Positions 1 through 4,465 are shown, numbered from the stretch's first letter. The stretch is 51,634 nt of DNA from a virus (IMGVR_UViG_2579779024_000005); one strand, 5' to 3'. Notes: generated by a model from the letters alone, not told the origin. Made by a program: numbers and translations.

Positions 1-450
1 TTATCTGGTGGTCAACTGAATGGTGCACTGGGTATCGGAACATCCAGTGCTCTTGGCGGTAATTCGATTGTATTGGGTGATAATGACACGGGCTTTAAAC
101 AAAATGGCGATGGTAATCTGGATGTTTATGCTAATAACGTCCATGTTATGCGCTTTGTCTCCGGAAGCATTCAAAGTAATAAAACCATAAATATTACAGG
201 GCGTGTTAACCCCTCGGATTACGGTAACTTTGATTCCCGTTATGTGAAAGATGTTCGACTTGGTTCACAGCAATATTATGGAGTGAACAACTGGCAAACA
301 TGGAATTTCCAGTGCCCTTCAGGTCATGTATTGTCTGGTATTAATGTTCAGGATACAGGGTCTAACTCTGCCGATAATATAGCGGGCGTTTATTACAGAC
401 CCGTTCAAAAGTATATAAATGGCACCTGGTATAATGTAGCGAGCGTTTAA
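1..450 (+). CDS. Alternative side tail fibre C-terminal segment, 5'-truncated by the window edge
   Basis: Frame is open from position 1 to the stop at 448-450. Shares the LGGNSI-LGDNDTG-KQ-GDG motif and the ...KYI(N/S)G(T/N)WYNV end with the C-terminus of the minus-strand fibre at 1559-4465. Confidence 0.6.
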
Positions 451-451
451 T

Positions 452-985
452 ATGATGCACTTAAAGAACATAAAAGCGGGTAATGCTAAAACACTGGAAC
501 AGTATGAGTTAACAAAGAAACACGGAGTTATCTGGCTTTACTCTGAGGACGGAAAAAACTGGTATGAGGAAGTGAAAAACTTTCAGCCAGACACCATAAA
601 GATTGTTTACGATGAAAATAATATTATTGTTGCCATAACCAAAGATGCCTCCACACTTAACCCTGAAGGTTATAGCGTCGTTGAGATTCCTGATATTACC
701 GCCAACCGGCGTGCTGACGACTCAGGTAAATGGATGTTTAAAGATGGCGCAGTCATTAAACGTGTATATACCGAAGAAGAGTTGCGCCTACAGACGGAAA
801 ACCAGAAAAAAATATTATTACAGCAGGCCAGAGAAAAAACGCAGTTCTGGCAAACACAGCTTACTTTGGGGATTATCACTGATTCAGACAGACAGCAACT
901 GATGAACTGGATGCGATACGTGCAACAGGTTGAGACAACTGATACCTCGGTTCTTCCTGTAACATTCCCGGAACCACCAGAATAA
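452..985 (+). CDS. tfa: Tail fibre assembly protein (Tfa family), alternative copy
   Basis: 177 aa; N-terminus [23 protein letters not shown]... is typical of lambdoid Tfa and paralogous to the minus-strand copy at 1016-1543. Confidence 0.8.
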
Positions 986-1015
986 GAAAAGGCCCGTACG
1001 GGCCTTAATTTGTTG
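985..1015. terminator. Bidirectional hairpin terminator between the convergent tfa genes
   Basis: aaggcccg-ta-cgggcctt stem-loop flanked by an A-run upstream and a T-rich tract downstream. Confidence 0.5.
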
Positions 1016-1543
1016 TTATTCTGGTTTCTGTGGCCATTCAGGCTTTGCAGTATCCACACGGCTGACCATAACGCTGTAGCGTTCCCATGATTCCAGTCGT
1101 GTGCGTTCCTCATCAGTTGCCATATTCAGTCTGACAGCACGTTCCAGCGGTTGAATCACAGACTCCGCTTCGGAAAGCAAAGCGGCTTTTTGTAACTCTG
1201 CCTGCTGTTGCAGTTCCTGTTTTGTATATTCCCGCTTTACTACTTTACCATCCAGAAACTTCCAGTTTCCCGAGATATCGGCGCGACGGTTGGCTGTTAT
1301 ATTCGGTAACTCAACAACACTTAACCCGTCAGGGTTAAGTGTTGATACGTCTTTCTCAATACAACGAATAATCCCCTTCTGGTCATAAGCTATTTTTAAA
1401 GTATCATCCTGAAAGTTTTTTAATTCGTCATACCAGTTTTTACCGTCTTCTGTATATAGCCAGATAACGCCAGCTTTTTTCGTAAGCTGATACTGCTCAA
1501 TGGTTTTGGGGTTTCCGGCGGTAATATTTTTCAGATGTTGCAT
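1016..1543 (-). CDS. tfa: Tail fibre assembly protein
   Basis: 175 aa; [23 protein letters not shown]...; lies immediately downstream of stf on the same strand. Confidence 0.8.
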
Positions 1544-1558
1544 ATATTCTCCTGATGG

Positions 1559-4465
1559 CTATGCCTGTTCAACGTTATACCAGTTACCAGAAATGTATTT
1601 TTGTAGTGGTCGTGACACCATCCAGTCATCTCCATCAACCTCACCAATAATTTGCAATCCTGTTGTCACATGACCATTACCTGGTTCGCAAAGTCCTCCG
1701 CGATATAATGTGTCAGAACGTCTGCCTCCCAGACGCACATTTCTGATAAAAGAACTATTCAGGTAATCATTTAAGTTTGACCCCCAGCACCCACCAAATA
1801 TATTTCCATCGGTGTTATAACGGACGCCACCCGCAATAAGAGCACCCGGTGAAATAAAGGATTTATCGTTCGGGTTAAACTGCCATAAAGCATCATTACC
1901 GCCATCGCCACGCATATGAATACATGGAACCGGAAATCCATACTGTTCTGTCAGTAAATACCCAAAGCTGACCGCGCCGGGATAGCCCTGTCCATTGCGA
2001 ATGGACAAGCCCTTAACTATCGGCACGTAAAGACCACCAGGAGTGGGATTCCAGGCAAACTGCGTCTGAACAAAAGGCGCGGTGGCATTATTCAACTGGT
2101 CTGCAAATGCGCCACTTCCATCAGGAATTATTCCCTGATGAATATATGCAACCCGCTTATAAAAATCAGCAGATGCGGGTTGAAGCCCAAATGCCAGTTG
2201 TCCATTTGAATAGAATAAAAGGACACCGTCGCCGCCCTGTTTAATACCAGTGTCGTTATCTCCGAGAGTAATGGAATTACCGCCCAGTGCGTTATCTGTA
2301 CCAAGCGCCAGCCCACCATCAATTTTGGCCCCGTGGCTGACAGATATAGCACCTGTTCTCAGATTTATAGCGAATGGCCTTAATGGGCCGATATCACCGT
2401 TTTCGCCTTGTCCTTCAGCCGTCGGAATGAAATGAAGAAAATCTTCTGAACGACGGAAAATAAGACCGAAGGCATCATTGAAAATTCGCAGCGCATTCAC
2501 CGTGCCAATTTTCAGTTCTCCGGTCATTTTATCGCCGGAACGCTGAACGGCGTTACCAGCCTTGTTTACCGTTTCCTGTAAACCGAGGTATTCGATAACG
2601 GCGGCAACGGTCGATTTCGCAAGAATATCCCGCCCAACTTTTGTCAGGGTTGCCAGACTGGCAACATCATTCCCCGTAAAATACGGAAACCTGTCTGCCG
2701 CAGTAGCAAGCCCGGCCAGCGCCGTCAGGGTGGCATCTTTCGGTTGCTTACCCGCAAGCGCGCTAGTCATGGTGGTCGCAAAATTCGGGTCGTTGCCCAA
2801 CGCCGCAGCCAGCTCGTTCAGCGTATTCAGTGCGTCAGGCGACGAGTCCACGAGGGCAGCGATCGCAGCCATAACATAAGCCGTGCTTGCGATTTGGGTA
2901 TTATTCGTTCCCTGTCGCGCAGTTGGTGTTGTTGGCGTTCCGGTCAGTGCAGGACTATTTAAGGGCGCTTTCTTGTTCGTTTCACCCATTACCGCCTTAA
3001 CCGCTTTTGGCGTTGCCGCCAGTGACTCGGAAGTGCTGTTGGTCGCACTGCTGAGCTGTACTATCCCCTTTTTCGTCGTGCTCGCATCCTCAAGCGCCAC
3101 GGCGGATGCAATATCCTCTGCCCGTTTTGCCGCTGTCTCGGCGCGCGTTGCCGCGGATTCCGCCGTACTTTTGCTCTGAGCTGCCGCCGTCGCACTGCCA
3201 GCTGCCTCTGTCGCCTTCGTGGATGCCGTCGTGGCGCTGCCCTTTGCTGCTGACGCCTGTCTGGTCGCCTCATCTTTTGAAGCAGACGCAGATGATGCCG
3301 ATGACGCCGCTGAACTGGCTGACGATGCGGCTGCCGCCTTAGAGGAAGCAGCATTGTCTGCTGAAGTCTTTGCATTTGTTTCAGAGGTTTTTGCTGCAGA
3401 AGCAGACCTCGCTGCTGCAGTGGCTTGCTCAGTGGCTTTGCCAGCCTTCGTTGTGGCTGTTGAAGCGGATGATGCGGCGCTTTCTGCCGATTTTCCGGCG
3501 GCGGTGGCACTGGCTGAGGCCTGCCCGGCACTTGTTGACGCGGCACTGGCAGATAATGCAGCCGCTGTTTTTGAACCTGCCGCAGCTGAGGCGCTCTGTC
3601 CCGCTGCTGTTTCAGAAGACTTAGCGTTCGTCTCGGACGTTTTTGCCGCCTTCGCGGAATTTCCTGCCGCCGTTGCCGAGGAAGCTGCACTACTGGCACT
3701 TGATGATGCATTCGTTTCTGAAGATTTCGCTGCCTCTTTTGAGGCCGCCGCACCCCGTGCCGAGGTGGCAGCTTCTGACGCCTTCGTGGTCGCTGTGGAT
3801 GCAGAAGTGGCTGCCGATTTTTGTGATGCTGCGGCATTCGTTTCTGACGTTTTCGCGGCACTGGCGCTGGTAGCTGCCGCGCTTTTTGATGACTCTGCAG
3901 CAGCAGCACTTTTTGCTGCTTCACGGGCCTTTGTCGATGCCGTTCCTGCGCTGGAAGACGCTGACTGAGCCGACGACGCGGCCTGTCCGGCTGACGTGCT
4001 GGCGGCACGTGATGAGGCTGCAGCATCGGTTGCATGAGTTGCCGCCTCGCTGGCTGATGCACTGGCATCGCTGGCTGATTTTTTCGCGGCTGCCGTATTC
4101 TGTGCAACCGCGGAGGCGTTACGTGACACCTCTTCTACCATCTGCTCAAAGCGGCGCAGTGCCTCCGGTCGTACATCATCCTCCGTCATGGCACCGAGAA
4201 AATCATTCAGCGTACCTGGTCTGGAACCTTCATAGACGGTAATGGTCCCGGCATGTGAAGGCGGAAAACCTTCAACCAGCAGGGTGACGCTGTACTGACC
4301 ATGCTCAACATCCATGCTGTAACGTCCGGCTTCATCCGGATTTTCAGAGGCCACCGTGTTCACCACCACCGTGCTGCTGGTTCGTCTGGCCTTCAGCACA
4401 ATGGTGCAGTTCTGTACTGGTTTTCCTGTGCCATCTTTAAGCACGCCAGAAATTTTTACTGTCAT
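1559..4465 (-). CDS. stf: Side tail fibre protein (Stf-like)
   Basis: 968 aa; lambda-Stf-like N-terminus (MTVKISGVLKDGTGKPV...), long Ala/Ser/Thr-rich low-complexity region, C-terminal variable domain. Confidence 0.85.
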   Translation of the reverse strand: MTVKISGVLKDGTGKPVQNCTIVLKARRTSSTVVVNTVASENPDEAGRYSMDVEHGQYSVTLLVEGFPPSHAGTITVYEGSRPGTLNDFLGAMTEDDVRPEALRRFEQMVEEVSRNASAVAQNTAAAKKSASDASASASEAATHATDAAASSRAASTSAGQAASSAQSASSSAGTASTKAREAAKSAAAAESSKSAAATSASAAKTSETNAAASQKSAATSASTATTKASEAATSARGAAASKEAAKSSETNASSSASSAASSATAAGNSAKAAKTSETNAKSSETAAGQSASAAAGSKTAAALSASAASTSAGQASASATAAGKSAESAASSASTATTKAGKATEQATAAARSASAAKTSETNAKTSADNAASSKAAAASSASSAASSASSASASKDEATRQASAAKGSATTASTKATEAAGSATAAAQSKSTAESAATRAETAAKRAEDIASAVALEDASTTKKGIVQLSSATNSTSESLAATPKAVKAVMGETNKKAPLNSPALTGTPTTPTARQGTNNTQIASTAYVMAAIAALVDSSPDALNTLNELAAALGNDPNFATTMTSALAGKQPKDATLTALAGLATAADRFPYFTGNDVASLATLTKVGRDILAKSTVAAVIEYLGLQETVNKAGNAVQRSGDKMTGELKIGTVNALRIFNDAFGLIFRRSEDFLHFIPTAEGQGENGDIGPLRPFAINLRTGAISVSHGAKIDGGLALGTDNALGGNSITLGDNDTGIKQGGDGVLLFYSNGQLAFGLQPASADFYKRVAYIHQGIIPDGSGAFADQLNNATAPFVQTQFAWNPTPGGLYVPIVKGLSIRNGQGYPGAVSFGYLLTEQYGFPVPCIHMRGDGGNDALWQFNPNDKSFISPGALIAGGVRYNTDGNIFGGCWGSNLNDYLNSSFIRNVRLGGRRSDTLYRGGLCEPGNGHVTTGLQIIGEVDGDDWMVSRPLQKYISGNWYNVEQA

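Follow-up and report, generated by a model that had tools for sequence, protein, structure and literature searches.

The window analysed here is a 51,634-nucleotide stretch of viral DNA (IMGVR_UViG_2579779024_000005), and the subject of this work is the tail-fibre region at its left end, which has the layout of an invertible host-range segment. The side tail-fibre gene stf occupies positions 1559-4465 on the minus strand and encodes a 968-aa protein, with the prophage tail-fibre N-terminal domain PF08400 at aa 1-134 (E = 5e-70). Its open reading frame (ORF) is unbroken from 4465 to 1559 and falls into two parts: the constant part Sc (2599-4465, minus strand), made up of the lambdoid N-terminal domain and an Ala/Ser-rich repeat shaft, and the variable C-terminal part Sv (1559-2572, minus strand), which is in frame with Sc and is presumed to form the receptor-binding end of the fibre. 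The partner of Sv is tfa (1016-1543, minus strand), a U-like assembly chaperone gene whose product matched Caudo_TAP (PF02413, E = 9e-35). Facing this pair on the plus strand are a second, U'-like chaperone gene, tfa' (452-985; Caudo_TAP PF02413, E = 6e-32), and the silent fibre end that it accompanies, Sv', of which the 3' two-fifths (1-450) enter from the window edge as an open frame. The two chaperones are 57% identical, and tfa' is expressed only once the segment has been inverted. A hairpin at 989-1006 lies between the convergent tfa stop codons and is terminator-like on both strands; the 51-nt fold has a dG of -24.5 kcal/mol (z = -5.6 against shuffles). The first-pass annotation had described a minus-strand stf-tfa pair facing a plus-strand tfa paralog across a shared hairpin, and every one of these parts was found at or near the positions it gave.

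The two fibre ends share a motif, ...ALGGNSI(T/V)LGDNDTG(I/F)KQ(G/N)GDG..., with 60% identity over 50 aa (E = 4e-13), and they become alike again over their last ~100 aa. Local similarity to Mu S was detected in Sv at the crossover region and at the C-terminus. The motif had been proposed in the first-pass annotation as the point at which both variable blocks begin. The likeness was borne out at the protein level, but not the role as block start: a repeat search found no inverted DNA repeat at 40-105 and 2238-2300, and the variable blocks begin at the crossover sites described below, 77 aa (Sv) and 161 aa (Sv') upstream of the motif. The motif was rejected as a crossover site and is regarded as conserved fibre sequence.

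A 26-bp sequence resembling the Mu gix sites was identified inside stf at 2573-2598 (TTCCTGTAAACC GA GGTATTCGATAA), where it forms the right-hand boundary of the segment. The window contains a single copy, against 0 expected in shuffled sequence, and it shares 24 of 26 bases with the Mu gix sites, including the central GA. A megablast search against complete Escherichia coli genomes returned 100% matches to window 1-4600 in many strains of sequence type 131 (ST131), among them EC958, with which window 1-12600 was found to be identical (12.6 kb compared). The EC958 flank could thus be read for the sequence left of position 1, and negative coordinates are used for it hereafter. The inverted partner site was spotted by reading this flank; it lies at -508..-483 and on the other strand reads TTCTCGTAAACC GA GGTTTTAGATAA. 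The search for a second copy in the window and the EC958 extract, which allowed up to 3 mismatches, had returned only 2573-2598 itself, the partner having 4 mismatches. The core TAAACCGAGGT and the central GA are present in both sites of the prophage, known in EC958 as Phi4, so that two inverted 26-bp sites with the same central dinucleotide bound the segment, one of them outside the window. Both sites can be aligned with both Mu gix sites, with P7 cix and with the sites of a second EC958 prophage, Phi1, and GA is central in all the Mu-type sites.

The whole segment extends from -496 to 2585, that is 3081 bp between site centres rather than the ~2.2 kb first suggested, and its part within the window is 1-2585. 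The left site lies 483-508 bp left of position 1, and the window edge cuts through the segment. The alternative fibre end, which had been read as 5'-truncated, is indeed present, but the cut is made by the window edge and not only in the genome: in EC958 another 483 bp of the plus-strand fibre frame precede position 1, as far as the second crossover site, and the full Sv' (-483 to 450) carries the gp37_C domain (PF12604).

In order to see what inversion would produce, DNA was exchanged in silico at the central 2-bp core of both sites. The flip fused the constant part of Stf (...AAVIEYLGL) in frame with the silent end, giving a protein of 941 aa as against the native 968 aa; the locus thus holds two mirror-image in-frame 3' alternatives, each with its own chaperone gene. 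Junction queries of 800 bp, one native and one flipped (built in silico), were then compared with complete E. coli genomes. At least 30 of the genomes listed carry the flipped junction in full and at 100% identity, and it was covered over at least 80% in 325 genomes, including JJ1886, JJ1887, strains 2/0 and 4/0, and U12A; the native junction was covered to the same extent in 243 genomes, including EC958, 4/1-1, 4/4 and U13A-U15A. The Sc sequence did not differ between native and flipped genomes. When JJ1886 was aligned with the in-silico-flipped EC958 sequence, 0 mismatches were counted in the first 7612 bases compared. In JJ1886, PGAP calls a fibre gene of 2826 nt (941 aa), and directly behind it stands tfa', the chaperone gene that EC958 keeps silent. 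JJ1886 and EC958 are related by a clean reciprocal inversion at the predicted core. Both orientations are also present in one culture, since separate PacBio contigs for the two orientations were obtained from a single EC958 culture (Forde et al., 2014; PLoS One 9:e104400, PMC4134206). The inverted gix-like sites, the in-frame flip and the occurrence of both orientations support the Sv-U / U'-S'v arrangement of the Gin/Cin/Pin type put forward in the first-pass annotation, which had also suggested looking leftward for a second crossover site and in the population for both orientations.

An invertase had been expected just left of position 1. The place was right, for a 'recombinase family protein' pseudogene starts 55 bp beyond the left site and is transcribed away from the segment, but the gene is not intact. 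It consists of 60 codons, with the Resolvase N-terminal domain (PF00239) over aa 3-60 (E = 3e-15), and ends at a TGA that stands in place of a TGG of gin, homology being lost ~10 nt later. No HTH_7 domain was found in the remnant, and there is no functional invertase with both Resolvase and HTH_7 domains beside the segment. The same 180-nt recombinase remnant is present in JJ1886. Because both orientations carry the same dead invertase, at least one inversion must have taken place after the gene decayed, and because the local gene is a 60-codon remnant with a stop, inversion must be catalysed in trans.

An apt source of the enzyme is available on the same chromosome. The P2-like prophage Phi1 of EC958 has its own invertible fibre segment and an intact recombinase of 199 aa (gene at EC958 957668..958267), with Resolvase and HTH_7 domains and 85% identity to Mu Gin. 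Phi1 and Phi4 are 98% identical over ~1.25 kb spanning the invertase 5' end, the site, Sv' and the start of tfa' (7250-8500 in EC958 extract L001 against 4080-5330 in extract L003). The Phi1 sites differ at only 1-2 bases from those of Phi4, whereas the sites of the prophage Phi2 are markedly unlike them. Given such close sites, and a Phi4 remnant that matches the Phi1 invertase gene at ~97% identity, Phi1 would be the natural cognate, and its Gin-like invertase is most probably the source of the trans enzyme.

The remnant may also have kept a function in cis. Its nt 1-182 are nearly identical (~97%) to Mu gin and so span the counterpart of the Cin enhancer, which the P7 record places within the 5' part of cin, at nt 19-86. 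The Phi4 stretch homologous to this enhancer lies 86-153 bp from the site centre, and the Hin enhancer lies ~100 bp from a hix site (PMC3798978); the position of the Gin enhancer is not stated in the Gin structure paper. By homology of position, the place of the enhancer appears to have been kept although the invertase gene is dead, and the 5' end of the remnant may still act as a Fis-dependent enhancer.

Further to the left, 800-2300 bp from the window in EC958 (extract L001 5687-7200) and past the remnant, two more tfa 3' fragments and a DUF4376 pseudogene were noted. The same flank holds an intact gene for a class I S-adenosylmethionine (SAM)-dependent methyltransferase, then genes of the Rha and ash families, and then a truncated copy of ompW. 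This flank looks like the debris of earlier fibre cassettes together with a cargo gene.

The locus was correctly recognised but is already described. Forde et al. (2014) reported it as Phi4 of EC958, with an invertible segment of 3106 bp and 26-bp sites at 1484784..1484809 ('Phi4_5prime') and c1487865..1487890; after coordinate conversion, the sites found here agree exactly with theirs, 2573-2598 being 1484784..1484809. They also described the invertase as 'severely truncated' and without its helix-turn-helix (HTH) domain and, from the near identity of the sites, proposed trans action of the Phi1 invertase. Their paper deals neither with an enhancer, nor with the 98% identity to Phi1 beyond the sites, nor with the split of orientations across genomes. 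The small additions of the present analysis, as far as sequence comparison can suggest them, would be the retained enhancer position and a cassette held in common with Phi1 (98%) and with a Mu-like Yersinia phage (96%).

We conclude with high confidence that most of a Mu G-type invertible segment lies in window 1-2598, carried by a lambda-like ST131 prophage, Phi4 of EC958, and that the segment is flipped by a serine invertase supplied in trans. Invertases of this kind bind each site as dimers, form a complex with the Fis-bound enhancer, make cuts staggered by 2 nt, rotate and religate. At the present locus, the enzyme would make staggered cuts at the central GA of both inverted 26-bp sites, and would rotate and rejoin the DNA so that 3.1 kb is flipped. 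In the orientation of the window, Sv completes the constant 5' part of stf and tfa comes next; inversion puts Sv' in frame behind that same constant part, with tfa' downstream. The two side tail fibres would differ in their receptor-binding ends, so that the phage could switch host range, and the enzyme would come in trans from the intact Gin-like invertase of Phi1.

Several points weigh against this reading. The left site and the invertase remnant lie outside the window and were placed by way of genomes 100% identical to window 1-4600, and the strain from which the window derives is not EC958, since a 1131-bp tandem duplication and a 162-bp difference set them apart elsewhere in the prophage. 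We infer the action of the Phi1 enzyme on Phi4, and other invertases of the genome, for example that of Phi2, are candidates as well. A simple scan for Fis motifs, itself crude, found no pair with 48-bp spacing in the Phi4 remnant, Phi1, Mu gin or P7 cin. Finally, the difference in receptor between the two fibre ends is presumed by analogy with Mu, whose G(+) and G(-) phages differ in receptor specificity.

The same body of evidence was considered against other explanations. That the segment is a frozen relic, its alternative copy a decayed duplicate and its inversion lost together with the invertase, would agree with the 60-codon pseudogene beside it and with the further tfa fragments beyond the remnant, which point to a decaying region. 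It is already refuted by the orientation data and can be given practically no credence: genomes with the same remnant and the same annotated ISEc12 insertion occur in both orientations with junctions exactly at the 2-bp core, the reads of one culture hold both (Forde et al., 2014), and Sv', tfa' and both sites are intact and yield an in-frame flip. An exchange by RecA-dependent homologous recombination or gene conversion, for instance with the Phi1 cassette, instead of site-specific inversion is very improbable too. The ~1.25 kb of 98%-identical DNA common to Phi1 and Phi4 would offer a substrate, and translocation between homologous tail-fibre regions has been described (10.1101/2022.05.07.487787). 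Against this, the inverted repeat within Phi4 is only ~36 bp long and contains mismatches, too short for efficient RecA exchange; exchange took place at the central dinucleotide of canonical gix-like sites and gave an exact reciprocal inversion; and Phi1 is ~525 kb distant, so that exchange with it would yield large chromosomal rearrangements and no local flip.

The explanation that the segment is inverted by a serine invertase other than that of Phi1, encoded for example by Phi2 or by a plasmid, is unlikely but deserves more weight than the foregoing two. The enzymes Gin, Cin, Pin and Hin can stand in for one another. EC958 has at least one further invertible prophage segment, that of Phi2, and PinQ has been found to act in trans (PMC12529663). 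The Phi1 enzyme is favoured all the same by the sites, 1-2 bases off in Phi1 and markedly different in Phi2, and by the ~97% match of the remnant to the Phi1 gene. We further considered that the Phi4 switch might be a maintained 'orphan' under the control of another prophage, the stump being kept as a cis enhancer while the Phi1 invertase sets the fibre type of both prophages; or that its effect might be at the level of the host, as for PinQ and e14, for example through a fibre-derived protein that blocks adsorption of other phages. This idea is speculative and we hold it to be quite doubtful.

Inversion of the Phi4 segment by a trans-acting invertase is best appreciated beside the known systems. 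By DNA identity the segment is 72-77% identical to the G segments of Mu/D108 and the C segments of P1/P7, and over its whole length it shares 96% identity with the segment of vB_YpM_3, a Mu-like Yersinia phage in which the invertase is intact; the cassette appears to move between three phage types, lambdoid, P2-like and Mu-like. With Mu G/Gin, the Phi4 segment has in common the gene order and an invertase gene ~55-67 bp past the site that points away from the segment. Half of the query aligns with Mu DNA at ~77%; at the protein level, tfa and Mu U share 78% identity, and a 93-aa block of Sv' is 85% identical to S'. The Phi4 segment departs from Mu in its constant fibre part, a lambdoid Stf (PF08400 and Ala/Ser shaft, 627 aa) instead of Mu Sc, in being carried by a lambda-like phage and in having a dead resident invertase gene. 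The e14 P segment of K-12, served by PinE, has the similar layout stfP-tfaP / tfaE-stfE'-pinE in a defective prophage of lambdoid type, and it resembles the state proposed for Phi4 in being invertible in trans by the enzyme of another prophage: PinQ, from the K-12 cryptic prophage Qin, was shown in a 2025 paper to flip the e14 segment in trans, which had an anti-phage effect (PMC12529663). It differs from Phi4 in its 1.8-kb segment, in pinE being annotated as a complete coding sequence, and in being a small cryptic remnant. The C segment of P1/P7, inverted by Cin, has homologous Sv/U/U'/Sv' cassettes (~73% DNA identity) and homologous cix sites. Unlike in Phi4, the core in P1/P7 is AA and not GA, cin points towards the segment, cixL overlaps the 3' end of cin, and the segment measures 4 kb. 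In ST131 wound isolates, tail-fibre segments of a P2-like and a lambdoid prophage have also been reported to invert reversibly, as checked by polymerase chain reaction (PCR) and restriction digest (preprint, 10.1101/2022.05.07.487787).

Beyond the fibre region, the window consists of a lambda-like prophage up to a terminal integrase gene. Phi4 is integrated beside ompW/trp and looks like a nearly complete prophage. The genes J, lom (split by ISEc12), stf and tfa follow one another on one strand, and PF08400 on the fibre, Caudo_TAP on the downstream protein and the place after J and lom in the late operon mark the pair as a lambdoid Stf/Tfa. ISEc12, an element of the IS21 family, lies at 4927-7229 inside lom (Ail/Lom) between J and stf, with lom flanks at ~4617-4856 and 7344-7802, and carries istB (4927-5676) and istA (5688-7229). 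EC958 and JJ1886 are annotated with the same insertion in lom. A strong terminator-like hairpin, with 13 pairs followed by a T run, was noted at 4484-4513 on the minus strand between the lom remnant and the start of stf, that is upstream of the fibre gene within the late operon.

At window ~3060-4110 (stf codons ~120-470) the Stf shaft is an extended Ala/Ser/Thr-rich stretch of degenerate repeats with motifs such as AAKTSETNA, and it gives rise to spurious long ORFs, both on the opposite strand and in other frames (3061-4107 and 3219-3968). In the EC958 RefSeq record (extract L001 9559-10968), stf is called an incomplete pseudogene of which only the 5' 1497 nt are given, despite the intact 968-codon frame; the JJ1886 record lists the silent Sv as a 'hypothetical protein' of its own. 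Automatic annotation is evidently confused by invertible segments.

The two differences between the window and EC958 lie outside the fibre region. A 1131-bp tandem duplication occupies 31151-33412, in the region of a phage sialate-esterase gene (SASA, nanS-p-like), where two minus-strand ORFs were recorded (31179-32306 and 32310-34178); behind a full esterase (DUF1737, SASA and DUF6645) comes a further ORF, in which its DUF6645 end recurs. Judged from the coordinate offset, EC958 has one copy of this stretch. The esterase-region ORFs and the integrase gave no match in an NCBIfam scan but did match in a Pfam scan. The portal gene ORF (20284-22707, minus strand) encodes 807 aa, as against 861 aa (2586 nt) in the EC958 annotation, and the genes downstream of it are shifted by 162 bp relative to EC958, which implies an in-frame difference of 54 codons within the portal gene.

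Tail-fibre switching by Gin, Cin and Pin invertases has been known since the 1980s, and nothing fundamental is added here to its biology. The locus illustrates that an invertible host-range cassette can be recognised from gene layout alone, that its true boundaries are the 26-bp sites and not the conserved fibre motif, and that a contig or window may end inside such a segment. What is mildly interesting is that the fibre switch of one prophage would depend on the enzyme of another. This dependence may be relevant to the interplay of co-resident prophages in the pandemic ST131 clone, and to the way in which assembly differences at this region are read.

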